NCBI GenBank assembly: GCA_010093815.1 | Contig: ML996570.1 | DNA from: Pseudovirgaria hyperparasitica | Taxonomy: Eukaryota | Strand: one strand, 5' to 3' | DNA length: 64,000 bases | Shown: positions 1,750-40,600 of the stretch, one piece after another | Numbering within the stretch: position 1 is the stretch's first letter | Layout of the letters: every line of letters begins with the position of its first letter | The notes under the pieces: model-generated | Database searches by the model: none | Told to the model about the DNA's origin: nothing | What the model saw: the letters and a program-made list of their open reading frames with translations, nothing else | Position numbers and translations under genes: made by a program

Positions 1750-2373
1750 GCACTCTGGTACATGAAAGTGATGACTAACTACTCTAGTATGCATGTTTAG
1801 AGATAGTAACGAAGCGTACAGAATGCTTTGTCAAGTGTAGCCTACGTCATATAATGGGAGAAAGGACAGCATTGTGCCTTCATTGCCCAGTAGCCCGACA
1901 GAGCACAAAGTTGTTTCGTATATTGACATTGTTTGTTAACGACGTGGAGCAGAGCAGAAAACAGACACAAAGGAGCAGAAATCGAAAAGGCATCATCACG
2001 GTGCGAGAATGGATGGCATTTCGGCAGAATGCCCCGCCCGTACCATCGACTTTGCTCGGATGTTGCATGCTGCATATCCTGGCCGGGGGTCTATTACTGT
2101 TACTGTGTACTGTGTGAGTATAAACGACTAATTGCATCCCTTTGATTGGTTATCAAGTGCCTGCAGCGTCAACGCCCTTCTCACTTGTGTGGTTTTCATC
2201 TTCGATCTCTCCGTCATGACATGATTTATTCCTTCTCCCTGTCGCCACTACTGCTTTAGCTGCCTCTCCAGTATATGTACTGTCCTTTCTCCCGTCTCTC
2301 CTCATTCTACACCCCTCCACCATTCTTCAAGCTTCTCTCAATCACACATATTCCCCCCTCACATCCCGTCATT

Positions 2374-4098: not shown

Positions 4099-4522
4099 CG
4101 TCGTTACTAGCGTTCTTTGGGTGTTGTTTTTACGACATGAATCATAATGTATCAATAAAAACTCTTTGGCAAAATATCTACTATCAAACTTATATCATGC
4201 TACTGTTGTACCGAACTGTGAAAATGTCTTCATTGGTGTGTCAGATGTTTGCACTCGCAATGTTATGAATTACACTCCTCTATTGATATCTCAGCAAGTA
4301 CAGCAAGCATTTCTTAGGTATCCGCTGTTCGACTTTCAAACCCTTCCTCTCACAAAATATACAGTCATGTCTACCCCTACGGGCCCCATATTTAACTCTC
4401 AGGCCTTTTCTTTGTATGCAACGCTGCTCGCCTCCTTAGTCCCACTCCTTCCCATCCCAGATTCCACCAAACTCCTGATTCCCGCGCCAAGAACCCAGAT
4501 CCATCCATGCAACCCCTGGGCC

Positions 4523-7900: not shown

Positions 7901-10517
7901 TCAAAGTCTACTCCGCACAGCTTCCAGCCTGAATTTGACATCTTTCAATGCCTTGCTTGTTGGCTTCCAGGCTTCAAACATGCTCAGCAACTCGTCCACT
8001 TCTTTTCCCAGTTCGCGTCTAACAAACTCTTCTTCTAGTAGTCCTCTCATCGCCCAAGGCAAAAAGTAAGGATTGGGGTTGATGCTACTCGTACTGCCTT
8101 GGAAGTCTTTGATAATAAGCGGTACGGTATGGGGTATATTAGTGGTTTCGAGGATGTGTGAAACCGCGAGAGAATACACAGAAGAATCCTCATGAATGCG
8201 GGAATGGCCTTCACCGGAATAGAGAGAACCTGCCAATGCTGGCGATAGCTCATGGATCAGACCATGGTCGGGAAGGCCCAAGTTCCTAAGCTTCAATACA
8301 AAGCCTACTAGGTGTGTCATACTTTCTACATTAGCCAAACTTCGTATTGTGTAGAGGATGTAGCACTTACAAGTCCGGAGCGTGCAATTTCCCGTTAACG
8401 AACACTGCGCGGTAGATATAGGGGTGCGAGATGTTAGCGAAGGTGGAGGATTCCAAAGAAACCAGCTGATCGTCCAGGCTACCGACGTACACCAACTTGA
8501 CGCCAAACTTAAGTACTTCTTGCATAGCGTTCATGTAATTGGCTGATTGAGTGCTCTTTGGGTTGGAGAATTCGAACAATTCTGCAGCGGTGCTGCCCAG
8601 ATACCTCGTCCTGTATTCGACAAAGGGACCAAGATTGATTCCCGCCATAGCGCATACACCTATCCTTGCCATTGGGCTTATACATCCGAATGATATCAGC
8701 TTCGCGATCAGCATGATCGCAACAGGCACGCCTTGAGAATGGCACGCTACCATGATGAGGTCGGCATTTCGGACGTGTTCAATCCAATTAAGCAGCAGCT
8801 TCCACAACGTATCTACTCGATCAGCTATGAACCCTTCACCTTCAAGGGCAACCTTCTCAATCTCGCAAGAATAGCCACCATGATGGTGCGTCCACTCTGA
8901 AATTGCATTGGCTGCACAGTTCGCGAACCGGATGGAGGTTCCTGTTGGTTGTCCAATCATGGATCGTATGAGTGACGTAGGAAAGTAGCCATGAATACCT
9001 ACAGCTAAAGCCTTCTTGACTCTAGGTGGTGATGGAAGCAGTTTTATATGGGGAGTCTCTTCCTGGTCACCCAACAAGTAACGACGTATTTGCTGCCAGA
9101 CTGAGGGCGACTGGGCAAATTGATATGTACTTCGGAAATCAGGCAGAACGAAATTTGTGCACTGCTCGACTTTGAGTGGCGGTTGAACTGCTGTATCGCT
9201 GTCTTCAATTGGTTTTGGCTTCATTCCCCGGTTCGTAATAGAGGGAGTGCTGCTGGTGGCGGATTTCTTCACGCTATCCTTTCCATGTGGCCTAGCCTTA
9301 GCTGGTGTATGCTCTTGAGACCGGGGTTCCTCTCTTTCATTGAATTGAGCAGCTTCCGGATGGTTCTGTGATGGTGTGTCGGCAACAGCTATCTCACCAA
9401 CCTCCCTGTGAACAGAGTCTGTGTCATCCTTCGCCTTGGGATTCTCTCTTGACCAGAACGCCCACCCGGTAGATTTCGTCGACGGACCTTTAGGCGTATC
9501 AGCCTGGACTTGCTTCGTCAGGGATTCTGGCTCAAGTGGCGTTTGTATGCTTTGCTGTTCTACCACTGCAGCCTGGGCAGAGCCGGTGATCTTGGAACCA
9601 TCCTTGGTAACGTCTTTAGACCGAACTATTTCTGGTTGAACCTCGCCATCATGGTGTATGCTCTGCGATCTACTCCAAAGCCAGAACCACGAGGACCGAT
9701 TTTGTTGTTGTTGCTGCTGCTGTTGAGATTTTTCGCTTGCAACCACATCTGAAGATGCTTGCCCCTCTGTGGCGACAGTTGCATGCTCGCTATCGGTAGG
9801 CTCTTGGGTTTTCAAGTCCTTATCTTCTGCTTCTGACTCACCCACCGGCGTGTTCCCTGGTAACGGTATCCTTTGTGCTTCAATTGACTCAACTGGTCTA
9901 GCTTTTACGGTCTCGTAACCGTCAGGTCTTGACCACCAGCTTGTGAGCATAGACATCCCAGTGGAATATCTATTTGTGTTCTCTGCGACTATCGTATCTT
10001 CCTTCTCCTCTGTGACTGTAGGGTCTGGTGGAAGTGGAGGTTCCTCCATAGTATCTTTTGAAGGGGCACCCGAGTTGGTGGATGACACTGGTATTCCGTC
10101 GTCATCTCCATTTGATGTAACATGTACTTTGGTCATCGAAGCAGCAATAGGGTTTCCCTTACTCGGTCGCCTTTTAGACAACAGTGTTGCGGGAGAACCT
10201 GAGGCAGATCTATTTGATTCTTTCGGAAGCTCTTGATTTGGCCCTCCCAAGGCCCCCACATTCTCTCTTGCGACTTGGGCTACGACTGGGGACGCCTTGG
10301 ATCTCCAGCTGCCACCATACCAGCTTTTCTGAGTACTAACCGACTCTTTTGTTGAGGTTGTACTGCTTCTTGGGAGGATTGATTCTAGGCTGGTCGAGGA
10401 ACAAGACGCTGGAGACGGCTTTGATGACGCAGACTGTGCTGGTTGCGCGTCTCTCGTTAACTGGGGCTCGGACGCAGGAGCCTTATCGTTGAGCTTCGAC
10501 TTCTTGCTTGGTCCCAT
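7901..10517 (-). CDS. Conserved fungal YML020W-like protein: disordered N-terminus plus alpha/beta-hydrolase-like C-terminus, 2 exons
   Basis: ATG at 10517 (MGPSKK); intron 8370-8322 (GTAAGT..GCTAAT..AAG). Motifs ALAVGIHGYFP, GQPTGTS, nucleophile-elbow CHSQG, and C-terminal WKPTSKALKDVKFRLEAVRSRL. Confidence 0.82.
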
Positions 10518-10879
10518 GGGTAGGTACTCGCCCAGCCTCTTCAAGTTCGATAGGCGTTGCTAGGGAATATATGAGCTAAGATACAGAGGACTGATATGCG
10601 TAGGTACCTTGACGCTGGGCGGTGGGGAGGCAGGAGTAGATACAGCGGCGCTGCTCGATTTCGTCATGTGCAAGGCGCGTGAAACTGGAGACCTGCGAGC
10701 TGGGCGGCTAGGTACTAGCGGGGCCTCAGCACCTTTTTGCGGGTCATCCCACGCGGGGAGTTCCCATGCCCGAAGAATTTCCATCGTCTTGCTACAGGAT
10801 CTGCGTCGTGCCAATTTTTTTATTTATCGTTCAAGTATTTGTTATACAACAGCCCGTAGCTCTCGCGCCACTGGCCAGA

Positions 10880-13529
10880 ATGGCAATCCAAAAGAAGGCA
10901 AGTACTGATTTATAGACTTCATGGCCTTTGTGGCTGACTTATTTAGCACGGCAAAGGTCGTCTCGATAAATGGTATCGTTTGGCAAAAGAGAAAGGCTAT
11001 CGTGCGCGCGCGGCGTTCAAATTGATACAACTGAATAAGAAGTACAATTTTCTGGAAAAGAGCAAAGTGCTAATAGATCTCTGCGCTGCTCCAGGAGTGA
11101 GTCGTGTTCACCGCACTAAACCCTAATACTAACAAGCACAGTCATGGTGTCAAGTTGCCGCAGAGGTCATGCCCAGTGGCAGCCTCATAGTCGGTGTGGA
11201 CTTGTCGCCCATCAAGCCCGTCCCAAGATGCATCACGTTCCAAAGCGATATCACAACCGACAAGTGCCGCGCAACGTTGCGGCAGCACCTTAAGACCTTC
11301 AAAGCAGACACTGTACTTCACGACGGAGCTCCGAATGTTGGTACGGCTTGGGTCCAGGACGCTTTTTCCCAGGCGGAGTTGGTCCTACAGTCCATGAAAC
11401 TAGCGACGGAATTCCTTTGCGAGGGTGGAACATTTGTGACCAAAGTCTTCAGATCAAAAGATTACAACCCTCTGCTTTGGGTTTTCAATCAGCTATTTAC
11501 CAAAGTCGAGGCAACAAAGCCTCCGTCATCTCGTAATGTCTCCGCCGAGATCTTCGTTGTATGCCGGGGCTACAAAGCACCCAAGCGGATAGATCCTAAA
11601 TTCCTCGACCCTCGATCTGTCTTTGCAGAACTCTCTGATCCTACACCGAATAACGAGGCAAAGGTTTATAATCCAGAAGTAAAAAAGAGGAGGAGAGAGG
11701 GTTATGAAGAGGGTGACTACATCCAATTCAAAGAGGTTCCTGCCAGCGAATTTATACACACTACGGACCCAATTGCTATGCTAGGATCACATAACAAACT
11801 TAGCTTCGATCAGAAGCCAAACGGTGACATTGCTCTTGCCACTCTCGATAAGCTTCCTGAAACAACGCAGGAGATTAGAGACTGCTGTGCGGACTTGAAG
11901 GTATTAGGAAGAGCAGACTTCAAGCGCCTCCTGAGGTGGCGATTAAAAGTGCGAGATATATTTGGCTTCTCAAAAAAACAAAAAGATGCACAGGCTGCAG
12001 AGCAAGATGAAGTTGCCGAGGTAGAGCCTATGGACGAGGAATTGAAAATGCAAGAAGAAATCCAACAGATGAAGGATAGAGACAACGCTGTGAAGAAACG
12101 AGAAAGAAGAAGAGCGAATGAAAAGAGAACGAAAGAGATCACTCGGATGCAAATGGGCATGACGACGCCTTTTGACATCGGCCTAGAACAAGAAGGCCTC
12201 CAAGGAGCCGACTCTGTCTTTGCTCTTAAGACTGTTGACAAGGCTGGTGGTGTGAATAAGATCGCCAGAGGAAAGATGCACACTATCTTGGATAGTGACG
12301 ATGATGAGCATTCCAAGTTGGAGGCTGAAGACGAAGATGAGGAGAGCGACGATGAGCAAGATGCTCTTGAGAGGGAGCTTGATGCTGATTACGAGGCGTA
12401 CCAAGAGCGACGAGCAATGGTCGATACAAAATACCGAGCCAAAAAAGCAAGGCGGACTTTCAAGGAAGACGATGAGGAGTTTGAAGGCTTCTCGGATCGG
12501 GAAACAGGTGATACCTCGGATAATGATCACATCATGCGTGATGAAGACAGCGGATCTGAGAGCGATACCGATGAAGATGGAGAGCAACATTTAATCACAG
12601 ACCTGGACGTGGAAGCCAAGGCTCCAAATTCTCTCAGCAAGCGCGCGCATATGTTTTTTGATCAATTTGAAGGTATAGACGGCCTGGATGATGAGGAAAT
12701 GGACAGCGGAATCGACGTAGACGAGGGCGACGCAGAATCATCGCATGCAATATCGGCTACACAATTGCCGTCTAGGCCAAAGAAGAAATCAGAACTAAGA
12801 TCGACAATCCAAGTAACGAAGTCCGAATTAGACCAGACAATCGAAGCGAGAAAATCACAGACAGAGGATGACGACTGGTCGTCTGATGATGATGACTCGA
12901 ATGGCTTCGAAACAGTCAAACGCAACGAGACAGAGTGGGAGGCAGGTGCGACTCCCATGAAGAATGGACGGCCAGATATCGACATCATCACAGCTGAAGC
13001 CATGACTCTCGCCCAGCAGCTTGCCACTGGCAAAAAGTCAAAATACGATATGCTCGATGATGGTTTCAACAAATATTCCCTTCGCGACGTTGACGGCTTG
13101 CCCGAATGGTTCCTCGACGACGAGAATCGCCACTCCAAACTCCAAAGGCCCATCACGGCGGCAGCAGCAGCAGTAATCAAAGAAAAGATGCGCGCCTTGA
13201 ATGCTCGACCAATCAAGAAGGTCCGGGAAGCCAAAGACCGAAAGAAGTTCAAGGCTGCGCAACGACTGGAGAAGCTGAAACAGAAATCTTCCATGCTGAT
13301 TGATGACGAGGGCATGACGGAGAAGGAGAAAGCTTCCAGCATCTCCAAGCTGATGGCCAAAGCAAAGAAGAAGAAGCCAAAGCAGCAAGTCAAAGTCGTT
13401 GTGGCAACTGGTAGGAATAGGGCGAATCCAGGGCGACCGAGTGGCACGAAGGGTAAATACAAGATGGTGGATGCGAGGTTAAAGAAGGATGTCAGGGCGG
13501 AGAAGAGATTGGCGAAGAAAAGGAAGTAG
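10880..13529 (+). CDS. SPB1: 27S pre-rRNA 2'-O-methyltransferase Spb1 (FtsJ family), 3 exons
   Basis: [32 protein letters not shown]...DLCAAPG|SW; introns 10898-10946 (GC-AG) and 11097-11141. Also [23 protein letters not shown] and the Spb1 C-terminal domain. Confidence 0.97.
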
Positions 13530-19723: not shown

Positions 19724-22700
19724 AGTGTAATTAAGAGAATATTACACGGGTAACAATCGAGTAAGTTGTCTACAGTGGACTTAATCTCTCTATGATTCAT
19801 CTGTAGAGGCAAATGGAAGTGACGAGCTCTGGTGCATGGCTAGGGGTTAAATACTGCGGGAAAGCGACAAACAAATATAGCCACAATATACCACCATCAC
19901 ACGCACCATCCAGTTTCGTTCGCATAGCCCCTGAAGCGTACGGATAACATCAACGCACAGTCGTGCCGCATCACGCACAATATCGCCATACATAACAAGC
20001 CACGATAGAGCGAAACATAACTTTTGTACTGGAGTCTGCGGGTGTGAAGTATCCATACAGATGGAGTTCGTTCGCTCTGAACACTGCCGGTCCAGGCGGC
20101 AAGCCTTCAGATCTACTAGAACACAAACGAGGACATGCCACACATAGCTAGAGTGTGACCGTGTATGTATGTAGTGTGATCAAAGTCGCTCGTCCGCTCC
20201 GTGTGGAAGGTGAACCTGATGTATTATGGGGAAAACCTGAAGGCAGGTCAGCGCAAGTATAACCGTCGGTCAAGCTCACCATGCGCTAACGCTAGTGACT
20301 ATCATTGTCATGCAAAGGGACAGAAGACCGTACCGCTCGCCCTGAAGCCACCGCCAGGCCCAATTTCCCTGGTCGACGCACGATAATAGGACATAAAAGT
20401 TCAGACCCTGATATGGGAGATTAGGCTCCCAGGGCGGAGCTTGAAGACAGACATCAGCAGATTTCGCTGGTTGTCAGCGCAATGCTGTGACTGCTATACA
20501 GGAACAATGGAAGAAGAAAAACGGCAAGGGGATACTGGCTATGGACTTGAGTGGATCTATAGTCGAGACTGTCGGGTAGGCCTATGGCCTGTAATCAATG
20601 AAGTAGCCGCCTGTCTTTGACCAAGAGTCTGTCAATGACTAGTAAAGTTGTGAAACAGATCTGAAGTACCGCCTGATACACGCCACAGGCATTGTTACTC
20701 TCGGTCAGATCAATAAAGATGCCGTTCACACGAATGGTAGGCAACGAAGGGAGAGACTTTGGCTATGCTTACAATCAACGACTTGTTTGTCCGGTATTCT
20801 GAGCACTCTATCCCACAATGGTCGATTGTCCTCACCATCCGCTGACAAGTTGGGGGTTTTCTAGATCATGAACTCAGAGTCGGAGTGGAGTTGCGATATA
20901 AAAAGCTGATTGAAAAGAAATTGTGCATGAGGTCAGAGCTAAGTACTCTCGTCAAGGTGCTTTCCGGCGATCCGTTGTTCCGTCATATTCACTCTTGCAA
21001 ATGGGCTCTCACTCAGGGGTAGATTGTCTGGAAGAGGTAAACACAGGGCATCAGGGCGCCTTGAGAAGGTCAAGAGTCATCATGTCATATCTTTGTGTCA
21101 TCGAATACAGCTTATTCGATAGCTATGCCTGTAGCTAAATGCTTTGGTCTTCCTATCAACTCTGGTTGGCTTCTCTGTATAACAAAAGTTCACGCAAACC
21201 ACCACCCTCAAGCTGCGAGCTACTTGAAAGCTTGACAGATACATTGCAAGATATATGCTACCTAGCCAGCAGTCTATCTAGGGTTTCATACTCTGTTCGA
21301 TCACCTAGGGCATTCGGGATTCGCATCAGCACACTGACTACAACCACAGTGTCCGTTCAATGGACAACCACGCGATACTCGAGCATTAATGGCCTTGAAT
21401 AGTTAGATAAGCAACTTAAGATAAAGCTAGGAGACTTCCACTCTGTTGAAGTTTCCTCATATCAATGAAACCATCTCATCTTACTCCAAACAAAACAAAT
21501 CATGACAAGAGCGCAAAGAAGAGCGAAGAAGAACAAATGAGGAATACTTACAGGCGACGAGATAATAGACCAATGAAGAGATGCATGACCCATGAATGCT
21601 CTACAAAGTGTATAAGCCAGTCAAAGTGGAAGTCGCCTCCAACTCAGTATGAGTACCTCAAACTAAACAACGCTATCTCATTTGAAGGTATGTCAGGATT
21701 TTAGCGATCTCGAGACGCCCAATGATCGCGTTTCGATATCGTAGAAACACTGCATATCTTTCTACTTGAAATAAACGCCAGCTATGCAATACGTCGAGAA
21801 CCAGACGGCATCATCCGAAACCATTCTCGTGGAGCACTGCACTGCCTCTATACACGGAAAAAGCCTTCTTACGAAACGCAATCCAACGTGGCATAGCCAT
21901 CGCTTCACGAGAAATCAACGATACTCGGCAACAGACCTGGCGCCGAGAGTCTGCTATATATCTCTACATTACGAGGCTCACTTACGAGTCCACGGTGGAC
22001 TCGAAATATCGTATCGATGTAGCAAAAGTCGAACAATCCTGCAGAAGCTAGACTGATTCGATTATGATTCCGGACGACCTTCTCATCAAATATAATGCCA
22101 ACTGTAAAGCGTTTTGTGGCAAATTCGTTATCCTCCCTAGGACGATGAATGGGCAATTCCGACTAACATTCTACTGTATAGACTAATGTATAAGAATGGT
22201 AATAAACCATATAAGTCCAGCAAGGGCAAGAAAGAGACGGGAAAAAAATCAAGCGCCAATAGTAACACATTCCAGTTAAGTAACAGTTCAAAGCGATATT
22301 TCAGATATAGTGTTACACGTCTCGCACGACACATAAGAATGCGTTTGCTCAGACCTGACCTTTCCAAAGCTGACGTATCAAATAAATAAAACCATGCATC
22401 CATGAAGGAGGCATCAAGTAGGAAGTTTCAAGACCACTAACATAACTAACCTGGCGCAATAAGTGGACGAAAAGGACCCAACTCCACATCTGGCAGAGCC
22501 ATATATATATAGCATATATACAACCACGCCTTATCAATTCCATCTGTCTCACACCACACCAAAGATAAACACCCAGCAACAAATTCCCGAAGCAACCATC
22601 CCACACCCAACTGTATTCACATTCCTAGCGCACAGACCTCTCCTCCCCTCTCCCACCCTACGAAGAAAACCATAAAATTCAAACAGCATCGAATCAGATC

Positions 22701-23341
22701 AGCCATACCTTCCCTGCTTCTAGTAACCGCAAGCTCAGGCAAGAGATCTGAGACGAGCTATGTTTGTGCTGTATTTCTTCTGGGTGAATTGAATATAACA
22801 TATGAGCAGGAGATCAGATGTTCACAAGGCACCACTACCGCGAACAAGGTAATATCGAATAAGAAGAACCAAAAGAGTGTTATAAATTCCTCTAACCCAA
22901 TAACCCAGCCCACAAGTCGTGCCAGTGATACATACGTACAAAACATCCATGAAACCCTGCGGAACACATAGTCTGAATAGTTGTATGTACCACCACGACC
23001 ACTTCCACCACATTCTATCCGTCCGACCCCTCGCCTGCGCACCAAACACTAAAGTAGAAAAAAAGAACGTTCAGAAACAAAATTTATTCGCACCCAACGA
23101 TCGAAACCTCACATATCGCATATTTCCACCTCTTAACCCCTTTATCTCTCTTTCAAAAGAACGTATATATTTTACCTATAGATACCTTCCATACCGATCC
23201 TCCTCTTTCATAAAGATCCATATATGTCCATACCTATACCTAAACACACGTTCTGTCGCAGGAATATATATCCCAATATGGAATATATACCTCCTACCCC
23301 TCTTCACCTAATAGGTGTCCATCCATTTAAAACCCCGTCTT

Positions 23342-23806
23342 TTACATGACGACGCAGGAATTGTGATTACCACCTACAGGCCCGCCTCGGGGGCGGACAG
23401 CGGGGGCGGCAATGTCTTCGTTGACGTCTGCCTCGTTGACGGAACGAGTGACGGATTCGATGACTGTGAGGGGGTCTTCGGGGGTGCGTTCGTGAAGGCT
23501 GGTGGGTGGGTGTGTCAGTATGTCTACTTCGAAGGTGGGGACAAGGAAGCAAAGAGAGGAGGAAGGGAGTCCACGGTGGAATCTAGGTATCCGAGGTGCT
23601 TCATATTGGATAGTTTGATGATGTGATGATGTAGGCTATGCATATCCCTTGGATAGTAGGAGGATAATGATAGGAAAGAATACATACTCTGCAATAGGGA
23701 CATCAGCATCGACAAGGTCCCTGGTAGAGAACGGCAGAGCGTTATCGAGGGCGGCGGCCTCGACAGCACGAACGGCGTGCGAGGCTTGAACGGCGGGAAG
23801 ATACAT
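23342..23806 (-). CDS. Small CAAX-box protein (91 aa), candidate a-class lipopeptide pheromone precursor, 2 exons
   Basis: CACCATG start at 23806; exon 1 23806-23688; intron 23687-23499 (GTATGT..TACTGAC..CAG); exon 2 23498-23342. Ends ...PRGGPVGGNHNSCVVM-stop. Strong C-ending codon bias, CT-rich 5' leader, adjacent to PLD and cyanase. Confidence 0.8.
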
Positions 23807-23899
23807 GGTGAATAATTCTGTTCTTCTAGTCGTCGTGGTATTGATAATTGAAGCGGGGATGTTGAGATACAGAGTATGATATCTTTCCTCGAGAGCAAA

Positions 23900-23940
23900 G
23901 AGAGAGAGAGAAAGAGAGAAAGAGAGAGAGAGAGGGAGAG
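23900..23940. repeat. (GA/CT)n microsatellite in the 5' leader of the CAAX gene
   Basis: Imperfect GAGAGA run; a second (GA)n run lies at ~24073-24086. Confidence 0.85.
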
Positions 23941-24976
23941 TCGGAGAAATAGAGATAGAGGATGAGTAAGACAAGATCTCGAGATCTAGATATAGAAAAT
24001 TTGTCCGCGTGCTTGTTTGAGCCAGCCAGAACAAGGACCCGTCCTTTGCAGCAGTTTTAATACCTTTCTTTCAGAGAGAGAGAGAGTGGTTCTGTACCGT
24101 CTCGATCCAGATACGGAGCTGAGATCGTGAACGGATCAAGATTGGGATGGGTTTGGAAAGGAGATCCTGAGATCTGTCTGTAATCTGGGTTGAGGAATGG
24201 GAGCCAGGCCCAGGGGCTGCCGATTTTCGACCCATGCTCTATGCTCTACGACTCAATACCTGCGACCCTGGCGGCGTCAATACTATGGTGGCAATCTGCA
24301 AACATGCTTGTGGATCCGCAGAACAATACGAAGAGGTCCGCATGAGCCTGTTATTGTTGACTCGAAATTGACAGTGGCGAAAGGCAAAGTATGAGCCCGC
24401 TGTCGACACGGAATGAGTGAGGCAGCATATGCAAATGCGAGGCTAAAAGATAAGTAACGATCAGCCTTGTTGTTTGGGTGATACCACCAATAATGTCTGT
24501 TTCGTAGAAGAGTTGCCTTAATCAGGCGTATCAGGCTCCAGTACCGCAACTAACGCCATACATCCTAGTGTTGAGCTCATTAGTCGAGAATGAAGGTTGA
24601 AATCAGCGTGAGGAATGGAGGGTGGGATGGTCTGGTGATTTGACCAAGGCCTCATCGTCGTCATGGTTCCATCCTTTGGATGTTGTTGTCAAGCCCGTTG
24701 GCTCGAGCACCGTTCTTAGTATTGTTCCCCATGTCGCCAACACCACACTAGCCCCAATCCAGCAATCAGATGCTGGTATGCTCAGTCGCATAACATGCAG
24801 AGTCGAGGATGTGATCTATAACGTCGCATAGACTTCAAGGATTATGTGTGATTTGATGTGGGTATTTGTGTATCTGCTACTCGTAGACCATCAAGCCAAG
24901 GATGGCTGCTCCAGCCAGTCTCATCATGTGTCAACGTCGGCCTGCCCAACATGCAGCATGCTTTCCACCATTTGGC

Positions 24977-27900
24977 TCAAGTATAGACCTCTTCGGTGAA
25001 GGCATTCAAGCCGAGACCTTCCTTGGCAATGTCCTCTTCCTTGAGGAAAAGTAATGGCATCTCCACCAACGTGCCCTTGATCGTACTGAGAATCTCCTTG
25101 ACTTCCTTGACACCCTGTTCACCAGGGGGGAATTCCTCCGCCACAACATGTCCCCACTTGTACTTACTTGGTTTCTTCTCTTTGTTGTCACCGTCCTGTT
25201 CGTGGAAGAAGCGTTCGTAGTACTCATCATACTGCTTCCAATTTCGGACCGAGTCGCTAGGCACGGGGTGGAATACGCGGCCAAAGGCATCAGTATTGGC
25301 CCGGGCGCGCTGGTTCCAGAAATTCAAGAACTCGTCAGATAAGGGATCAGTCACCAAGATATCTTCGTACGAGCCCCAGTCGTAGATGTTTGGGACCCCA
25401 ATCGGTTCATAATTCTGATCCGGGTGATCCATGACTTGTGGCTTAAGTAGTCCAAGATGCTTTCGGAAGATCTGTCTTCGCAGACTTGAAGCAAAACGCG
25501 ACCCTCGCCACGGCCTGCCATCCATGAGTCCCTCCACTGGAGTTGGATCGTTGACAACGATTGCAATTTCAGAGTCATGATCACCCAGCTGAGAGCGATC
25601 GTTAAGATTTGCTGAGCCACAAATGACAATTCGGTCATCAGCGATGAGGAGCTTTTTACATGTCAGCTGGCCAAATCGCCTACAAAGCTGGTAGAGACAT
25701 ACCTTGGAATGGACGTAGAGTTCTTCGCTCACGAATGCGTCAATCTCATCCATTGCACCATGTTCCCATGGTACATTGCGAATATCTTCACCACCAAGCA
25801 TGTAGCACTCAGATACGCTGTCCCACCTGCCACCAGCCAAGCCCTTTCGATCAGAGATGCCCTGAGCCCCTTGTTGATACTGCTGGTATGCGTCCCCGCC
25901 CAACCCGCGCGAGCAATTTCCGTCCATTTCATGGACATTACCAGGAATACTAGCCGGAGCCTGTGACTGGTAACTTTTGTAATTACTCTCCTGAGAGTAT
26001 TGCGCCGGCCCAGTATGGTCAGATCCGTTTGCAGGCATTCCTGGTCGATAAGCTTGGTATGTTGTCTGGTTGTCTGATGCATAAACGCCTCCAAAGGCCG
26101 CGTCGTGCTCCTTGCGGGCGTCTTCATACCTGACACCGCTCTGTTTCTCAGCTTGCGCCATGACGCCGCTGACATTGATTCGATCATAGCTTCGAAGGTT
26201 GTAGAATCTGATGTATTCCATCGGGTTAAATCCCTGTTGGGCGATCCTCTCGTAGATACTGTTTCCCCCTCGATTGATCGAATCATACTGAAACTCCATA
26301 ATGGCCCTCGTGCTCAATGCATCGTCGGACTTGAGATCGCCTGCAAAGGCAGGGACTGCTGGAATGACAATGATCATTTTGTACTTTTCACCTTTCCTTG
26401 CTGCTCTGAGAATACGTTCGACCATGGCTTCACCAATCTTGTTTTTGATGGGCCTCTGTTTGTCGCCAGTCGCAGTGATGAAGAATTGGTTCTCAATATA
26501 CACAAAATGCTCGCTGTTACGAATTACCTCGCAATAAGCGTTCTGAATGGAGTGCTGCGACGTGTCAGTAAGTGTGACATGGCCTAGATAGTATACTTAC
26601 CTCGAGGCCACCGCCGTGGCTCCATTTGGCGCAACTTCTTGTGATCTGACAAGATGTCCCGCCTGGACCTTGAGAGCTTGTTGGCCGTGAAACGCCATAG
26701 TGACTTCCGATACGGTGCTCGACATGCTGGAAGCCCTGATTCAAGCGATCCTGAAGTTGCCCACGCAGGCCGCCTTGATCCTGACCATGACTCTGTGCGA
26801 GGCCGAAGATGCCACGTTCACCTTCACCGCCGAAACCGCGTTCTTCGCCTTCGACGTCTCTTTGCTGCCCTTGAGGTGTAGCGCTGACAGTTGTAGCTCT
26901 CTCCGGAAGGAGAGCATAACGAGGATCTTTGTGGGAGTACTTCTCTTTGAACAAAAAATTCCAACGCTGACTGAAGTGGCTTTTCAAATCTTCCACAGCG
27001 GGACCTGTCAAGCAAAGAGACACATCGGACCATCCCATACGCGAGCTTTTCGTACGATCCAATTTATTGTTCTCCCAATTCACAACGTCCTGGAAGTCCA
27101 TGATTCGGGCGTTGTTATAGTCCTGTCCAGGGAAGACGATATTGTCTAGATCCCCAGGGTGGGCATCCGATATTGGGTGCTGGTTAGTGTCCCAGCGACC
27201 GTAGCAGAGGTCAAGTCCACCCATGAAGGCAGTGCGGCCATCGATAAGGCAAAGTTTCTCATGATGCGCCCAATAGAGGACTGTGCCTTCGTGTACCCCA
27301 TATATTCCTTCTATGGTTTGTCCTGGTAGTTTTGCTATTGAGGCTGCTGAAAGAGAGAGGTTCTGCAGTGAGCTTAGAAAGGACGACGTGAGAACCTTTT
27401 GGTCCGGTAGATGGTCGGGGTGCCGGAACACAGCAATGTTGGGATGCAAATCTTCGAGTGCATGTTTGGTATGCGATGAGGACACTGTGAGAGGGGGAGC
27501 TATCAGCGGATTGTCCTTCTCCCATTGTTCCAAGGAATTGAATATGACATCCAAGCCCACCCGCGATATGAATTTAGTAATACGATCGGTGGTTTTAGGA
27601 AGTAGGGAGTGGAGGTAATCGGGCAGCGTGGGATTCAGCAACTTACGGGTGAGAGCTTGGGTGACCTTTTAAAATGATTAGCATACACAACTTGGCGGGC
27701 ACTCGTTGACTGACCTCTTTATAGACTATAATGTTGACTTTCACACCTCTTTCTGCGGCCGCTTTGAGCATGCGGTCTACCCGGTATTGCTGATTCTTTG
27801 CTGGAGGGCGTCTGAGATATAGCTCAGGTGAGAGCCACCCTGGAAATGTCAGCCATTGCATAAGTCCTATTGAAAGGTAACCGACAATCGAGAATCCAGA

Positions 27901-28153
27901 TTGATTCCCTAGCACGTTCCAGAGCCACCGAAACTGCCCACATGTAGCCACAGCCGTCAACATACCACTTTATATCATTTCCGCCAGTTCGCTCCGGTGC
28001 AAAACTGTTGAAGCGATTGCCCGTGGTCGAGTCGGTGCTGGGGTTAGCAGGTGCTCCGCTCGTTGGCCTTTGTTGATTATTAGACAGTCTCTCTTTCACT
28101 TCTGAGCCTAGACCATGGACAAGGCCGTGGGCTTTGTCAAATAACGAGGACAT
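24977..28153 (-). CDS. pld: Phospholipase D (two HKD motifs, no PX/PH domain), 6 exons
   Basis: ATG 28153; introns 27885-27840, 27714-27666, 27646-27485, 26600-26555, 25702-25652. Motifs WLSPELYLRRPP, WAHHEKLCLID, IYIENQFF, YVHSK|LLIADD, GSANLNDRS. Confidence 0.95.
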
Positions 28154-29163
28154 GCCTCCTGAAGGTTTCTCTGGGCCTGGCTGCTCGCCATATGCTAGGT
28201 GAGGTTGGTATTGCTGAGTGACACTCTACATAGCATCATCGTAAGCATTGGGTCATTGTTGACGTTCAAGAGCGGTTGCAGCATACTGTATCGCCCTGCT
28301 GAGGCTTCTTGCCTCCGCCGAAGAAGCGTCTTCCCACATCACCGATAAAGCCTCGTTCGCCGTCCGTTGACTGGGCATCTCCGTGGAATTCGCCATAGGC
28401 CAGATTATCATCATGATCGCTGTGTCGCGACATGATGAGAAAGTCTTGGCGTGTATAGATAAGGGCTTATTGAGCCATTGAGAGCAAAGCGCGGATAGAA
28501 AGTCGGGCACGCTTGAGGAGATCGGTGGTGGACTAGTTATCAAGGTTGCTGGTGATGGTATTGCGAAGATGAACTAATTACAGTAATCACCTAGTACCTC
28601 TAGACGCATGCCTGGAAGGACGGACAAGGTGCCAGCGAGTGCCACAAGCTGAACTGCCCCTCTCTGCCCCGCCATCAAGCAGCTATCAGGGTGCCCAAAG
28701 TCGTCGACATCAACACCATACTGGCTCCATCCACATAGACATACAAGAGATTGCAACATGCATCAATCACTGACGTTACCAAGTAGTTACATAGGTCAAT
28801 AGCTAACCAGTAGACGAATCCATCATTGTGACCGGATCTCATGGATCGTGATAGACAGCTACGTAGGCAGTCAGTCCCTCTTCTCGTCAGCCAAGCGGAG
28901 CCACGCCCAACTTCGCTTCGTTTTTGCCTATCATCGCCGTCATTAATACCGCTTTGCTACTTCATGGCTTGAGGGGAGATCGTTGAAGATAATTAGGTCG
29001 TAGTCACAATCACAGTCACAATCACCACTCATCTCATATCAATCGCGCCGTTCTCGACTAATCGAATCAATCGATTGACTTGCAACCTGTAGCACTTAAT
29101 TACTGTAATCAGTTATATCCCGGATAAGTCTTTCGTTCGACCCGCTCGGCCGCTTCTCGACTC

Positions 29164-29197: not shown

Positions 29198-29922
29198 ATG
29201 CCTCTCTTTACCCGCTTTGCATCTCATTCCTTGGCTTCGTCATCTACTTTATTCATCAAACAGGCTCCTCGTATCGTCGCATATCAACCCTTTCGCCGCA
29301 TAGTCACTCAGCCTTCTTCCAACATGGCCGACGCAACAGCAGCTCCTGCACTTGCTACCCTTGATGTGGCTTTGCCGATCCCAAGCTCAAGTGACCATGG
29401 AAGCTGACAATTCACATAGGCTTCTCTCATCCCTCGTCTCCCCGTATGGTGCCCAACTGTTTTCGAGGCCAAGAAGAAGCTGAATCTGTCGTTTGCCGAC
29501 ATTGCCAAGGAAGTCGGCCGTGACGAGGTTGCCATTGCTGCTCTTTTTTACGGTCAGGCCAATGCCTCGCCAAAGGATATCGAGGTGCTCGCAAAGGTCC
29601 TCCAGATCCCAGAAGCCATCCTCCAGGATCAAATGAGTGGTCTCCCAGATCGTGGCAGGGCTGTTGACATGCCTCCCAAGGACCCTCTCATCTACCGTCT
29701 GTACGAAATCGTTCAGAACTACGGTTACGCCTACAAGGCCGTGCTAAACGAGAAATTCGGTGACGGCATCATGAGCGCCATCTCGTTTTCAACAAAGGTA
29801 GAAAAGGAAACTGATGACAAGGGCGACTGGGTCAAGATTACCCTCAGAGGCAAATGGTGAGTCTGCTTAGCCTTCGAATGAACTTTACTGAGCAGCACAG
29901 GCTTCCATACACCAGATTTTAG
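29198..29922 (+). CDS. cyn1: Cyanate hydratase (cyanase), 3 exons; second in-frame ATG at 29324
   Basis: Introns 29366-29419 and 29857-29900. Motifs [50 protein letters not shown]. Confidence 0.96.
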
Positions 29923-30414
29923 TTAGATATGAGTTGTGAAGGTTGTTTAGAACAACTTTCGTCACATAAAAATGTAGAGCTATGACCACTTACCAGATTT
30001 TATACTGTGTTAGAACTAGTAAACGTCCCGGCTTTTATATTCTTTTATTCGTCTGATCCCCCTCTGTTTGTGTTCTTCACGTCGCCTTTTCATATATGTC
30101 TAGAAGTGTTATTCCAAGTTAGTCTAAGCGCTGTTTTCGTTTCTGGAAGCTCTTGAATGGAGCAGCAACAACTAACATCCTCTGTTGTTCACTTCACATA
30201 TCCAGTCGTATCACTCATCTCTCCATATACTTACCTATCCTAGTTGCCACGTTTTGAGGTAGCAGTATCTATACGCACGTCCCATGTCCCATTGAGACTG
30301 GCTGATAAGCTGTCGTTCATACAAAGATGGGTGTCCCTATTGATAGCATCCCTCTTACAACCTTTTCCCCTTGTCTACTATTGTGATATCTGTAACTGAG
30401 AATATCATTTACAA

Positions 30415-31015: not shown

Positions 31016-31943
31016 AGTCACTCTTGCTGAGGGGATTATTGTGATGTAATCACACTGTCATCGTATCAAAGATGCGCTCTTCAAGAGATAAACTGACGGG
31101 AAGCAGATCTGTCGAGCCCCAAAATCCTTGCCATGTATGGCTTCTCCAGCCTCCATAACCACTTCTATATCGCATATTCCGCCGGAGTGTCGAGAATATC
31201 TCGCGTCACATCACATTACGTACAACCACGTCTTGCAACGCTATACTTACCCTATCTGTACTCTCTATTTGGGAAAAAATTACTCGTCTCATCGAGACGT
31301 GCTATATGAAAGCTTTATCTACCCTGTTTGGATCCATGGTTAGTAGTAAGGTAGTTGCTAACGTCAACCTGGACACAGGGCGGTAGCGCCCCTCTACATA
31401 CGTGTTGAACACTTTGGTATATGGAGCTCAGGGGAAAATCCACATTAGTTCTATTGCGTTCAACTTTCAAGGTGTTTCCCTTGGTCATTCTCGTTCCGTC
31501 TTATGCAACGTGCAACTAAATTTTTGACATTCGTACTCTTTGTTCACGTCCATAACCGTGAACATCTCAACTCAATTTCAAGTCTCGATAAGTAAATTTC
31601 GAACATACTCCGAGTTCCTTAGTCTTAAGGTTAACTTAAGTAAGGTTAGAGGATTCATGTAGACCGAGACAGCAATGCCTTCGTAGCATAAGATTGTCGC
31701 TGTTCTTTAGTAGATTACAAGGTGATAGGTACGCTATTGTGCATCGTTCTTTATAGCCTCAATTCACTCCTAACTGCTCGGTATCGATTCAAGTTGTGAC
31801 TCTGGAGCTTACATGGGCAACAACGAACGACACACTGATAACCCCGCACTTCGAACTACTATAGCCTCAAGTTTGTTCACTCTCAATCCAGGATCGAGTC
31901 AAACACTGCCTAGCTGAGCCCGTGCACGGTTCAAGTCTTTCAT

Positions 31944-33968
31944 ATGTTTTCCAGTCTTAACTCACACCAAGCCCTCCTACCTCGTTCATTTGACGCCTTA
32001 TCAACATATCAGCCCCCGCGAGACCAATCGGCTCCTCAAGTTACCATGAAGAATCCAGACAGGTGTGACGTCTGCTCATGTGTGTATGTCCATGTGGATA
32101 AAGGTCCACCTTGCAGCATCTGCGCCAATGGCTCTCACATTGCTCACCTCCACCTCCCGACGGATAAGCCTGACAAGTACACGAGATGGGAATGTCTTGT
32201 TGCCAACTGCACGGTAAAAGACGAGCTCAAGTTCTTCGAGAAGCACATGGAGAAAGATCACTTCTACTGTCGAAAGTGCCACGCTGCCTTCAAAGATTGG
32301 GAGACGCTTGTAAAGCATCGAATCAGTTCTCCCCTGCACTACGCGTGTAACTTCTGTGGTATCGAGTTCAAGAGCATTCATGGCATCAAGAGGCATGTCC
32401 AATTGGTAAGTCAAGATACCAATCCGTATCCAACATAAGATATTTCATACAGTGCCTCACTGATAATTGGCCATCAGGACCATCCTCCGAAGCAAAACCT
32501 CAAGTGTATCGGTTGTGGTGACATGTTTGACCGAGCTGCCTCCATGGTCAATCACCTTGAGCAAGGCCACTGCGCGGTTATAACCCCGCAAGAATTCGCT
32601 GGTCACATGCAGCAAAAGATGATTATTGATTCAGTCTTGAGAGACAAACCTAGTGTTCTTCCAGGGCCTAACCACATTCTAGCAGCTGTAGACTTGGACG
32701 AAGGAGGAGGTGTCTGCCTTCTACAGGGACACAATATTCTCGAAGCAGATGAAGCTTCTGGACATCCCAAAATTGCCTCGTTGCAACCAGAGAAGAAACC
32801 AACCTGCAATAGTACCCGATCGCAGTATCCCTCTCTTCAATCTTCGACTGGGACTTCTGGTCTAGACAGCTTTTCAGGCATGTCAATTTCGAGCAGCGCT
32901 GCCCTCTCAAGTAAAGCTGCTTCTTCCACAGTTTCTACCATCGATGACGACGATGGTTCTCAGAAGCCCTGGGGTAGCCAGACCGGTGCATCCAAAACGC
33001 TCTTTCCGGAATCAAGACCTACGCCAGTCGACCATGACTGGCTTGAAGGTAAACGACAGGCGGATATAGGCTACGCTCGCCAGAATGGATCCAATCTTTT
33101 CAAGGACCGTTATTGGGATCCGTCAAGCGAGCGGTTCAAAGCTGAAGCATTCTTTAATGCTGTGATGGAGTTTTATGAGTGCCCATTTAACCCATGCAAC
33201 CATAAGTCTTACTTGCCTAGCGATCTGGTCCATCACATCCAGACATCTCATCGAGCGATTGAATACCGATGTCCTTGTTGCTTCAAATGGTTCAAGACTG
33301 CTGCGGCTCTTATGGGCCACGCCGAAGCCGCCGGAACTAGATGCAGAATCTCGAAGACTGAGAACTATCGTGAAGCAGTTAACCAATTCTCCGCAGGTTT
33401 TATCCAAGCCAACGAGGGAAAGCACCCGGACATACCTGTTCAAAAGGTCGTGGGATATTCGCTAGACAAGGACGATGAGCTCGTGCCCACGTCGACCGAG
33501 AGCATCAGACACAACGTCTGGACCTACGAAAGCAGCAAACCTTCCGACTGGGAGTCTGGTCAAGAGCAAAGGAAGGTGGAATACGAGAGAAGCCAGCTCA
33601 CGGATCCATTCGGCTATAATCAGCGCTACGCTCACATCAACACCGCCACTCATTTTGAAGGTGGCCGGCCTAGTCTGCCTTCAATGATGCATCACGGTAG
33701 TCTGTTTCCTGAGCGGGATATTATGGGTGGATCTTCGAGCAAGTATTCCGACGGACTTCGTACACAGCAAGAAGCTCTTCAGGGGTACACGTTACTCGAC
33801 CCCCAGAAGTTGAAGCAGCAAAAGAAGCGTAATGCTTGGTCGAAATTTGCCGCCGGCATTGAGAGTGTGGACAAGTACAACGAGCTCATCAGTGGTTCTG
33901 ATGGAGGTAGTATCAAGGTCGATGGCTTCGACAGCGAGGATGAGGGCGAAGCGACGGAGACCGAGTAG
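31944..33968 (+). CDS. Multi-C2H2 zinc-finger protein, 2 exons (start may be the Met at 32046)
   Basis: Intron 32406-32477. Fingers include CRKC..H..H, CNFC..H..H, CIGC..H..C, CPFNPC..H..H and CPCC..H. Confidence 0.88.
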
Positions 33969-37684: not shown

Positions 37685-40600
37685 ATGGCAAGCAATGAGA
37701 GCCTCGTCCGAGCGGCGCCCTTGCCAGACATCCTTCCAACCATCGGCAGCTTCTTCAGGCAAGCTGTAGCATTGTATCCTGACCATGTCGCACTTTCTTG
37801 TCCTCACCAATCGTCGGATCTCTTTGGCATGTGCAGCATTCCTTTGGACGCCGACGAGTACCGCGAGAAGCCTTGGCTACGTTGGTCGTACACAGTCTTC
37901 AAACAATGCGTCGATAGATTTGCGTCTGGGCTCAGAGCCCACGGAATCTCCTGCGGAACCTCTATCGTAACCTTTCTTCCAAATGTCGCTGAATATATGA
38001 TTTGTTTCTGGGCTGCTGACGCGTTAGGGTGTTCTTTTGTACCAATCAACCCAAAAAACTTGACCAATGTGGCGGAGGTGAGTAGTGAAGAGCTCTATTT
38101 TCAGAGCACAAAATAATACTTATGGACCAAAGGTTGATCACATGTTACGAACAATGTTATCTGTAGGGCCTAGCTCTGAAGGGGCAGTCATAATTGCGGG
38201 GAGTGACACGATGGAAAAGGTCGACGTGCTCGCCATCCCTGAATCAACTTTGAAATGTGTAGTCGGAGTGTCAACATCGTCGGATTGGGTGCCATTCGAA
38301 CAACTGTGTCAACCCAAGTAAGTCGATCTCTAAGATGAATCAGTCACTCGTAACGTGACCAGTGCTGGACCGGGAGCTGGACTCAACAAACATGATGACG
38401 GCTTTGAATCTTCAAATCTGCACAGTCTTGTCATGTTCACCAGTGGAACTACATCCTTACCTAAAGGTCAGTTAGTGACGACGGTGTGAAGTATATAAAT
38501 GACACAATAATCCAGGCTGTTTGCTGGACCAAGATATTCTAAGAGCAACCTACATGCAATGGAAAATAGGTAACGAGGTAACCCATAGACCAGACACTAT
38601 AGTTTGTCATGCCTTGCCAAACAACCACATGGCTGCAATGCATTATATGCTTCATACCCTAAGCGAAGGTGGTATGATCATGCATCCTGGACCTAGTTTC
38701 GATCCCGATCTTCTTCTTAAGATGTCGACTATAGAGAGATGCACGCTCTTGTTACTGGTACCGGCAGCACTTCAAGGCGTTGTTGCGGCCGCTGCAGGAC
38801 TTCCAAAGGTACATTCCCTGGAATCTATCACATTGGGTGGTGCTGCTCCGACTATCAGAGATATAGAACTGGCCTATAACGGTCTGGGAACTCCAAACGT
38901 CGAACACGTTTTTGGGATGACCGAAGGCGTCGTCACATCCACGGGTCGCGTTTCGTCATCTGCCGACATAGTGAGAAATGGACTGACGACGTGTGGGAAA
39001 GCCAGACATGGCAGTTGTCTTAAGATATGCGCTCCTGGGGAGCGCCATCCAGTTCCCCGGGGCGTCCCTGGAGAATTGCACGCGAGTGGTCCTTACATCG
39101 TTCGTGGTTATATTGGCCTCAACAGCGACTCTTTCTACAAGGACTCTGATGGAAGATCTTGGTTCAACACTGGAGATCAAGCTTTCATTGATGATGAGGA
39201 CTTTTTATTCATCTCTGGCCGGTACAAAGAAATGCTTATTCGTGGCGCCGAGAACATTTCGCCCGCGGCAGTCGAAGCTGCTATTTCAACAGTACCTGAT
39301 CTTGCTTTACGTCAGATCCAGATAACTGGGGTACCGGATGAGGCTGCTGGGCAAGTGCTGGTGGCTATTTCAGCACAGGTACTAGATTCTGCGACCCAGA
39401 AACGTGTAAGGAATGTCATAATCGACCGCATGGGTACTATGTTTGTTCCCGAGACGTTTTACCACCTCGAAGAGCTTGGCTTGGCAACTTATCCGACGAC
39501 CAGTCTGGGAAAGATACAGAAAATACCGCTCGCTGCTATCATCGCCCAGCATCGTGGGCGTAAGCTCAGCAGTGACTACACATTCCCAACAGACAACAGA
39601 GAAATCATGGGTCCAACTATATCATTGGCTAAGCTCCAAGATACTTTACGGAAGACCTGGGCTCGAGCTGTCGGATTAGACGTCGTTGATGTACCACTGA
39701 ACCTTTTAGTAACAGAATTCGCGGACAGCGTAACTGCAATGCGTGTCCGTAGTATGATTCGGAAGCAAGTTGAACGTGACATCACACTTGTCGAATTGAC
39801 AACCACGACCATTGAGCAACAAGCGCAATTGCTCCACTCACGTCCTCCATTCAATGTCAGCAACGCCGTTATCGCCACGAAACAAAGGCCTGGTCCTCCG
39901 TTGGCCGATGATATGACACATTTAGCTGGACGTGAGGAGTCTCTTGAGGACACAAAGCAGCTCGTTGAACGAACTTTGACTCCTTTAGGGCTCAGCTGGG
40001 ACGATGTTGAGGATGTTATACCTGCTTATGACTTTAATCAAGTTATTTCAAAGGCGAGAATCGTCGATTCGCTTACATGGAACTTTGCTATACTACCAAA
40101 GAAGTTTCGGGCCGCCGATATTGGAGCAGTTATCGAGAAACTCTTGAAAGTACATCCTCTATTTCGTTCATTCTTTATACGGGATACAGACACTCTTAAT
40201 ATGGGACGGCTGGCTCTTCACATTATTATGCGTCCAAGACCATCACTCCTCAGTCGCATTATACTCCAGGCTGGTTCTGTTAAGACTGTGGCGGACCTCG
40301 CAGCTATCGTGCACAATTACCCTACACCCTCTCATGCCATAATTCCCGGCCCAATGGCCGTCTTCACCATCTACACTATCGAGGAAAGTGGTCTAGCAGG
40401 CTTCATTCTGCGTGGTAAGCAGCTTCCCTTCGCTATAACCTTGAAAACTGTTTTTCCTATCGGCGTACTCGTCACCCTTGACTAATAGCTATCAGCGAGC
40501 CATACCATGTTGGATGCTTCATATGGCCGTCTATTACTCGAAGACATTGAAAGAGTCTGTGGTGGTCTTTCACCCAATCCCCACGTCGATTACAAGCTAT

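Follow-up and report, generated by a model that had tools for sequence, protein, structure and literature searches.

The DNA examined here, 64,000 nucleotides (nt) of contig ML996570.1 from Pseudovirgaria hyperparasitica and referred to below as the window, carries on its minus strand a small intron-split gene whose predicted product ends in a CaaX box, Cys-Val-Val-Met (CVVM). The gene immediately upstream, on the same strand, encodes a phospholipase D (PLD), which stands divergent from a cyanate lyase gene; one or more C2H2 zinc-finger genes close the block on the outer side (Table 1). An earlier note on this DNA, drawn up from its letters, had described the order as CAAX gene, PLD and cyn1. 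It had proposed that the CaaX gene, hereafter the candidate, encodes the precursor of an a-class lipopeptide pheromone. Both neighbours are confirmed by Pfam, with the cyanate lyase gene 5.6 kb from the candidate and PLD in between. The pheromone proposal now draws support from a splice junction seen in transcripts and from CaaX-ending open reading frames (ORFs) in the PLD flanks of other fungi, and we consider the function it assigns to the gene probable.

Evidence of expression comes from the assembled contigs of two public runs (X1 and X2), which belong to one sample of one study, its kind unrecorded. In these assemblies, the candidate is represented by contigs of 857 nt (X1) and 837 nt (X2) that span 22890/22904 to 23498, joined directly to 23688–23890, beyond which they extend into masked repeat. 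In both runs, the joint omits exactly 189 nt bordered by CT..AC on the plus strand, equivalent to GT..AG on the minus strand. The PLD contigs of both runs likewise omit a 51-nt stretch bordered by CT..AC, through which the stop-to-stop ORF of PLD reads uninterrupted. Because two canonical introns have been removed, these contigs represent complementary DNA (cDNA); apart from the introns, they are identical to the window sequence. The candidate gene is transcribed and spliced, and the junction is the one between 23687 and 23499 that the earlier note had predicted. Joined across it, the coding sequence (CDS) translates into the same 91 residues as proposed there, ending in CVVM. In the spliced contig, the 91-codon ORF opens at the first ATG and is longer than any other; it begins within CACCATG, in agreement with the good start context noted previously. 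As the earlier note had also observed, the gene is missing from the ORF list, which holds only the pieces 23636–24070 and 23342–23635. Within the intron, an ACTGAC branch-type site lies 17 nt ahead of the 3' CAG, and the candidate frame, when read unspliced, meets a stop 17 codons into it. The GC content is 0.60 in each exon versus 0.46 in the intron. A 51-residue model with an internal ATG and a 212-nt intron was considered and set aside, being unsupported by the cDNA junction.

Table 1. Features of the candidate locus and its flanks, with positions counted from the first letter of the window.
Feature	Position	Strand	Remarks
Candidate CDS	23806-23342	minus	Two exons, 189-nt intron; joined CDS 276 nt, 91-residue product
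5' untranslated leader, minimum extent	23807..23890	minus	From cDNA contigs; at least 84 nt, no upstream ATG
Exon 1, coding part	23688..23806	minus	119 nt = 39 codons + 2 nt; ATG 23806-23804
Intron	23499..23687	minus	189 nt, phase 2, GTATGT...ACTGAC...CAG; skipped exactly in cDNA contigs
Exon 2, coding part	23342..23498	minus	157 nt = 51 full codons + stop TAA 23344-23342
CaaX box C-V-V-M	23345..23356	minus	Holds the sole cysteine of the candidate product
3' untranslated region	22890..23341	minus	About 450 nt, up to the cDNA contig end
CT-rich tract (AG on plus)	23891..23999	minus	Directly upstream of the mapped transcript start; both cDNA contigs break there
Upstream box ACAATACGAAG	24323..24333	plus	Opposite orientation, ~520 nt upstream of the candidate ATG
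Upstream box ACAATACTAAG	24715..24725	minus	Candidate's orientation, 252 nt below the PLD stop
PLD gene, approximate extent	24977..28225	minus	Pfam PLDc and PLDc_2; upstream neighbour on the candidate's strand
PLD intron	25652-25702	minus	51 nt, in-frame, splits the second HKD motif; removed in cDNA contigs
Cyanate lyase gene	29420..29860	plus	Pfam Cyanate_lyase E = 5e-33; divergent from PLD
C2H2 zinc-finger gene or genes	31914..33968	plus	Weak Pfam; outer member of the conserved block

The region between the two transcripts has its own peculiarities. The PLD cDNA contig descends to 24178 (X1) and 24000 (X2), some 800–980 nt beyond the PLD stop; this extension (24000–24976, minus strand) is either a very long PLD 3' untranslated region (UTR) or an overlap with the upstream start of the candidate transcript. 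The CT-rich tract that follows is likely a core-promoter pyrimidine box.

Codon usage was assessed by a log-likelihood score trained on ten in-frame, Pfam-supported segments (3562 codons). The candidate reading frame scores +0.243 bits per codon (+0.262 in exon 1 and +0.208 in exon 2), the other two frames score −0.234 and −0.582, and the intron and 3' UTR give negative scores in all three frames. The candidate score was reached by none of 4000 random intergenic windows of 273 nt and lies above each of the 51 window scores from two held-out long ORFs. The preference for codons ending in C that the earlier note had remarked upon is pronounced, with C at 47 of the 91 third positions (52%) versus 30% in the ten reference segments. 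The CaaX ending alone carries little weight, since C-x-x-x-stop closes a good many frames (165 in the 64-kb window); what weighs in favour of the candidate is its junction in cDNA, its codon usage and where it lies with respect to PLD. The candidate is probably a real, independently translated small gene.

The predicted product has a mass of ~9.6 kDa, an isoelectric point of 4.5, 14 acidic (D+E) versus 6 basic (K+R) residues and a single Cys. Only 9 of its 91 residues are Ser or Thr, and it contains neither Lys-Arg nor any dibasic site. No long hydrophobic stretch occurs at its N-terminus, where hydropathy on the Kyte–Doolittle scale peaks at 1.3 over 9 residues; this measure, a heuristic only, agrees with the previous claim that a signal peptide is lacking. 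With 91 residues, it is at the upper limit (fewer than 100 residues) that Srikant et al. and Wilson et al. (PMC10569646) applied to a-factor-type precursors. Pfam, run on each exon translation separately, returned no family at E ≤ 0.01, the G-gamma (GGL) family included; Rfam gave no match on 19800–25000, and the best score of an Atlas look-alike search, 0.81, was under the lead threshold.

The surroundings of PLD in other fungi were compared through 80 metagenomic loci (L001–L080), which were retrieved by the C-terminal 224 PLD residues at 57–79% identity and oriented with PLD on the plus strand; in 60 of them, PLD is followed by 1200 nt or more of downstream sequence. Of the 46 loci whose upstream flank reaches 5 kb or more, 34 have a cyanate lyase gene upstream of PLD and on the other strand, and in 32 loci a C2H2 zinc-finger gene follows beyond cyanate lyase (tblastn, matching place). 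The head-to-head pair and the zinc-finger gene are kept across Dothideomycete-, Lecanoromycete- and Eurotiales-like loci, and the block of zinc-finger gene, cyanate lyase and PLD is, judging from this sequence comparison, old. One PLD homologue at NCBI, from a Chaenotheca metagenome-assembled genome (P0109), bears the name 'Cyanate hydratase' and is probably a fused gene model.

A scan for CaaX-stop frames in the 3 kb below PLD gave 33 strict matches on the PLD strand versus 14 on the other strand, an excess due to one recurrent gene. CaaX-ending spliced ORFs, which the earlier note had suggested might be found in the PLD–cyn1 flanks of relatives, are present in 24 of the 80 loci, each an intron-split CaaX gene on the PLD strand. 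In 20 loci, the family stop follows the PLD match at a distance of 1075–1926 nt. In the other 4 (L041 and L056–58), the distance is 6243–7397 nt, as a result of the insertion of zinc-finger and dihydroorotate dehydrogenase genes. These inserted genes, of which the zinc-finger gene is again of the C2H2 type, occupy L041:11004-14874 and the corresponding parts of L056–L058 between PLD and the family gene.

Gene models were built for 23 of the 24 loci, L028 being left out for its GTG in place of ATG. The terminal exons end in PGYGCTVM, PGYSCCVM, PGFGCCIM, SPGGGCTVM or SPGGGCVVM, and the family consensus is G-[YFG]-[GS]-C-x-[VIL]-M; the CVVM ending of the candidate recurs in locus L060. Ten distinct products were obtained, of 23–42 residues and, in L034, 75. 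Their N-termini read MSPS, MQP or MEP and continue into a stretch rich in Ser, Thr and Ala. All 23 models have a single phase-1 intron, which directly follows a basic residue and precedes the Cys by six residues. The 75-residue product of the Dothideomycete-like L034 (2448-2739, plus strand) consists in part of five tandem NGYGC-x-x-M units, each followed by Lys. Two loci show possible natural variants: L028, in which GTG stands at approximately 12180-12190 where near-identical relatives have ATG, and L024, in which the donor at approximately 12250-12260 is GCAAGT rather than GTAAGT and may instead mark a GC-AG intron. To judge from these sequences, the PLD-linked family looks like the a-factor-type pheromone gene of the Lecanoromycete- and Eurotiales-like groups. 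It is probably the ppgB family, and its Eurotiales-like members in L051–53 and L060 (23–24 residues, ending SPGGGCTVM or SPGGGCVVM) may be PpgB orthologues.

The loci were classified by their best named PLD match together with a quick maximum-likelihood tree of the PLD fragment, whose support values are from the Shimodaira–Hasegawa-like approximate likelihood-ratio test (SH-aLRT) only. This tree places L060 as the sister of a Penicillium reference (support 96). The PLD of L051 is 82–83% identical to Aspergillus fumigatus and Rasamsonia proteins. The family gene is present in 19 of 19 assessable Lecanoromycete-like loci and 4 of 4 Eurotiales-like loci, in 1 of 26 Dothideomycete-like loci (L034) and in none of 7 divergent loci (PLD identity below 66%). 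The mostly empty slot in Dothideomycete-like loci fits the failure of the literature to find an a-factor gene in this class. In L001, a DUF7730-like ORF occupies the slot in place of the family gene.

The candidate shares with this family its slot, strand and distance, the surrounding gene block, the presence of one intron, and a C-[TCV]-[VI]-M ending that follows a basic residue and a Gly/Pro-rich segment. On the strand that the two genes share, the candidate stop follows that of PLD after 1635 nt, within the family range, and the candidate's slot fits the block of zinc-finger gene, cyanate lyase, PLD and pheromone gene. Only the loci were used to define the pattern C-[TCV]-[VI]-M-stop. Over both strands and all frames of their 975 kb it has 23 occurrences, every one at a family gene; the 64-kb window, in any frame, has a single one, at the candidate. 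The C-terminus of the candidate product runs from Arg-Pro-Arg through a 10-residue Gly/Pro-rich stretch to CVVM, a layout common to the family, with a Cys-bearing segment four residues longer. Exactly at the Arg/Gly boundary of the candidate sits an AG|GC that would fit the phase-1 acceptor of the family; it is unused in the cDNA.

The window and the loci also have an upstream box in common, which was found through a k-mer comparison of the regions upstream of family genes. The 11-mer ACAATAC[T/G]AAG (ACAATACKAAG) has 29 matches in 19 loci, all on the plus strand and all 29 between PLD and the family gene. One set of boxes lies 90–340 nt below PLD and a second set 482–570 nt upstream of the family ATG (305 nt in L034). 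In L041 and L056–58, the second set has been relocated together with the family gene. The box is absent from Dothideomycete-like loci that lack the family gene and from Eurotiales-like loci. The window contains three matches, versus none in 100 shuffles of the whole window, and two of the three fall in the 1171-nt spacer between PLD and the candidate. The third copy (8340–8350, minus strand), at the junction of ORF pieces 8367–10559 and 7901–8530 (minus strand) of an unrelated gene, is unexplained. The complement of the box contains ATTGT, which we take to be a core of the high-mobility-group (HMG) box type, reminiscent of the M-box of the Schizosaccharomyces pombe M-factor genes. The ACAATAC-type box is possibly a site for an HMG-box mating-type factor. 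An assignment to MAT1-1-1 was rejected because the core of that factor, ATTGA (PMC8022922), mismatches the ATTGT of the box complement. A set of promoter motifs, comprising the Ste12 pheromone response element TGAAACA, [AT]CAAAG, the MAT1-1-1 motif CTATTGAG and TATA, had no match in the 1170-nt spacer.

The reading that we consider probable is that the candidate is a divergent, long-precursor gene of the a-factor type, the Dothideomycete counterpart of mfa-1/ppg2 in Sordariomycetes and of ppgB in Aspergillus. Chance, or a mere non-coding RNA, is made unlikely by the junction, codon usage, CaaX type, slot and shared box together. If the product follows the a-factor pathway of Saccharomyces cerevisiae, the cytosolic precursor would receive a farnesyl group on its single Cys, lose VVM, its final three residues, and be methyl-esterified at the new C-terminus. 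The long acidic N-terminal part would be cut away, and the resulting short, Gly/Pro-rich farnesyl-peptide would be exported by a Ste6-type ATP-binding cassette transporter and sensed by the Ste3-type receptor of the partner. A cut after Arg-Pro-Arg, in line with the cleavage after PR that the earlier note had proposed, would leave 11 residues, and such a site would fit the relatives, in which a basic residue directly precedes the Gly/Pro-rich, Cys-bearing segment.

Several observations weigh against a pheromone gene at this place. The product departs from the family in length (91 residues versus 23–42 in single-copy members), in the missing MSPS, MQP or MEP start and Ser/Thr/Ala-rich stretch, and in the sequence before the Cys, which is Asn-His-Asn-Ser, with no aromatic residue near, where the family has G-[YFG]-[GS]. 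Its intron, in phase 2, is separated from the stop by 52 codons, whereas that of the family is in phase 1 and six residues before the Cys. The earlier note had itself described the precursor as unusually long and intron-containing, which holds for a product of 91 residues with one 189-nt intron. Homology searches are also negative. A word-based search of 5.8 billion protein clusters (sizes 53–170 residues) gave no match, and phmmer with exon 2 against 1.84 billion representatives gave none at E ≤ 0.001. With tblastn, the best hit of the two exon peptides to the 80 loci reached E = 1.3, and its strand or place was wrong. The word-based search did not return the candidate product itself either, so the gene seems to lack an annotation in the collections that were searched. 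Among the assessable Dothideomycete-like loci, 25 of 26 lack the family gene at the PLD slot, so that its retention in the candidate's genome would be an exception, and the prior for it is lowered. A canonical family-type gene could also lie elsewhere in the genome, the evidence on the candidate being drawn from the 64-kb window. The cDNA stems from a single sample of unrecorded mating state. Moreover, the PLD and candidate contigs both break in the CT repeat, which leaves the candidate transcript start unmapped and allows for a read-through 3' extension of PLD. Lastly, the processing rule described for Saccharomycotina, Asn-X at 5–20 residues before the Cys (bioRxiv 10.1101/2021.09.28.462209), is not obeyed, since the nearest Asn residues leave 4 or 22 residues; being a rule of Saccharomycotina, it may not suit Pezizomycotina.

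Some of these departures would be expected if the candidate encoded a small farnesylated protein with a role other than that of a pheromone, one that stays uncut on an intracellular membrane and was either recruited from an ancestral pheromone gene or is unrelated to it. The product is 2–4 times as long as the single-copy precursors of the family, and coding-like codons run along its whole N-terminal part, which suggests that this long stretch is more than junk. Features typical of the family, namely its N-terminus, its G-Y motif and its intron position, are missing, and the gene is expressed in the sole available sample, its mating state unrecorded. However, pheromone pro-regions vary in length and are translated as well, so codon bias does not separate the two readings. 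The candidate occupies the exact slot, strand and distance of the pheromone family and has its CaaX type, the spacer box is common to both, and no Pfam domain, that of G-gamma included, was found on the exon translations. We therefore regard a non-pheromone protein as unlikely, if the least unlikely of the alternatives.

The same departures in intron position and phase, N-terminus and length could instead mean that the candidate is a pheromone gene in decay, a relic in a lineage where sex has been lost or is rare; the ancestral intron and N-terminus would then be gone and the ORF transcribed without function. The empty slot of 25 of the 26 Dothideomycete-like loci indicates that loss is common in the class, and the family-type AG|GC acceptor left unused at the Arg/Gly boundary would suit such a history. 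Against decay stand an ORF that is intact from the first AUG and an intact CaaX box, and the codon statistics (52% versus 30% C at third positions, and a score above all 51 held-out ORF windows) argue for current selection on translation; we judge a relic improbable. Least credible, to the point of being very improbable, is that the spliced RNA codes for no protein, being either the long 3' tail of an extended PLD mRNA or a non-coding transcript, and that its ORF and CaaX box arose by chance. This would accommodate the reach of the PLD contigs beyond their stop, the end of both contigs in a CT repeat, the 165 C-x-x-x-stop frames in 64 kb and the lack of a homologue in protein searches. In contrast, none of the 4000 intergenic windows attains the codon score, and the CaaX pattern of the family occurs nowhere else in the ~1.04 Mb examined. 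In L041 and L056–58, the family gene lies two genes away from PLD and is thus independent of PLD transcription in these relatives. The contig depths differ ~20-fold (12.6 versus 256.6 and 30.8 versus 601.2), contig depth being a poor measure.

The rest of the window adds context. The PLD residues encoded by 24977–25651 are 100% identical to an NCBI entry, phospholipase D/nuclease [Pseudovirgaria hyperparasitica], and the next-best relatives, from Zopfia, Delitschia, Lindgomyces and other Dothideomycetes, are ~80% identical; by these matches, the source of the window is a Dothideomycete without a close sequenced relative. A 19-codon ORF ending in CLLL (30309–30386, plus strand) lies a short way downstream of the cyanate lyase gene, at the place typical of Sordariomycetes. 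It was rejected as a pheromone gene, because its final Leu points to geranylgeranylation, the family motif is missing and such frames are common; it is probably a chance occurrence. Other genes in the window (2260–5914, 38503–40485 and 60154–60996 among them) encode a catalase, a HET-domain protein, an AMP-binding plus carrier-protein (nonribosomal peptide synthetase-like) product, a DHHC palmitoyltransferase and a KN-homeobox protein. No mating-type (MAT) gene was recognised in the 64-kb window.

Lipopeptide pheromone genes are missed by homology searches and gene callers because they are short, fast-evolving and often split by introns. As of 2023, the only such gene on record in filamentous ascomycetes outside the Sordariomycetes was the putative a-factor gene of Leotiomycetes (PMC10569646). 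Our literature searches, whose coverage did not extend to the A. fumigatus ppgB paper, returned no report of an a-factor-type gene for Dothideomycetes or lichen-forming fungi. The kind of pheromone is thus already known, and what may be new is its Dothideomycete member and the positional rule with its box. The chances are about even that the candidate is the first a-factor-type gene of a Dothideomycete, in a long-precursor form with a 91-residue acidic pro-protein and a relocated intron, and that it is one instance of a lipopeptide gene kept at a single conserved chromosomal address. If so, the candidate and the 24 loci together would place this gene at one address across Eurotiomycetes, Lecanoromycetes, Dothideomycetes and, via cyanate lyase, Sordariomycetes. 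With PLD and cyanate lyase as neighbours and an upstream ACAATAC-type box of its own, such an address would amount to a simple positional recipe for genes that otherwise elude detection. The rule, namely to look ~1–2 kb below a PLD gene head-to-head with cyanate lyase and to allow for one intron, is applicable to many genomes. Many crop pathogens, their mating biology a subject of study, belong to the Dothideomycetes, and the window provides a concrete candidate that is expressed and for which peptide masses are predicted.

Known systems resemble the candidate to different degrees. G-protein gamma subunits are CaaX proteins of similar size, and the GGL domain that characterises them was not found on the candidate exon translations. 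The products of S. pombe mfm1-3 and S. cerevisiae MFA1/2 are CaaX lipopeptide pheromone precursors, and the candidate likewise ends in a CaaX box. The mfm1-3 M-factor genes contain introns, and intron-containing pheromone genes are described as eluding stop-anchored searches (bioRxiv 10.1101/2021.09.28.462209). In Trichoderma reesei, HPP1 carries a repeated (L/I)GC(T/S)VM motif (Schmoll et al., 2010), and this GC(T/S)VM type of ending is its point of likeness to the candidate. Its three copies come with Kex2 sites, whereas the candidate has one CaaX box, one Cys and no dibasic site; it is L034, rather than the candidate, that resembles the multi-copy layout of this h-type precursor.

Closer in kind are the putative a-factors of Leotiomycetes (the BCIN_13g03330 family; Wilson et al., 2023, PMC10569646), which have 45–64 residues, an N-terminus rich in Ser and Thr and a G-Y motif. 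Their CaaX box is mostly CTVM, with CVVM also occurring, and the genes are usually unannotated and expressed independently of mating type (PMC10569646). The candidate agrees with them in having fewer than 100 residues, in an ending found among theirs and in being unannotated, as theirs usually are; linkage to cyanate lyase is not described for the Leotiomycete genes in that paper, in the available text of which the word 'cyanate' does not occur.

Outside the Sordariomycetes, PpgB of A. fumigatus, the subject of work by Krappmann and colleagues in 2025, is reportedly, going by the title, an a-factor-like pheromone. That work may already contain the Eurotiales members of the PLD-linked family and the synteny with PLD and cyanate lyase.

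In Sordariomycetes, the a-factor-type gene is linked to the cyanate lyase gene (Schmoll et al., 2010, PMC3068285), and the statement of the earlier note that the mfa/ppg2 locus lies near cyanate lyase is found in that paper. The precursors quoted there have ~20–26 residues, an MPST or MSPS start and an aromatic residue directly before the Cys; that of Magnaporthe grisea, encoded downstream of cyanate lyase, starts with MSPS and ends in YCVIM (PMC3068285). The candidate is unlike them in its 91 residues, its acidic N-terminal part, the lack of an aromatic residue near the Cys and the position of PLD between the gene and cyanate lyase. The PLD-linked family shares with classical a-factor precursors the MSPS start, as in M. 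grisea, an N-terminus rich in Ser, Thr and Ala, and G-Y/F before C-x-[VIL]-M. The Sordariomycete precursors (Neurospora crassa mfa-1, M. grisea MF1-1 and Fusarium graminearum ppg2) and the candidate are alike in being small, in having no evident signal peptide, in ending with a CaaX box and in their linkage to cyanate lyase.

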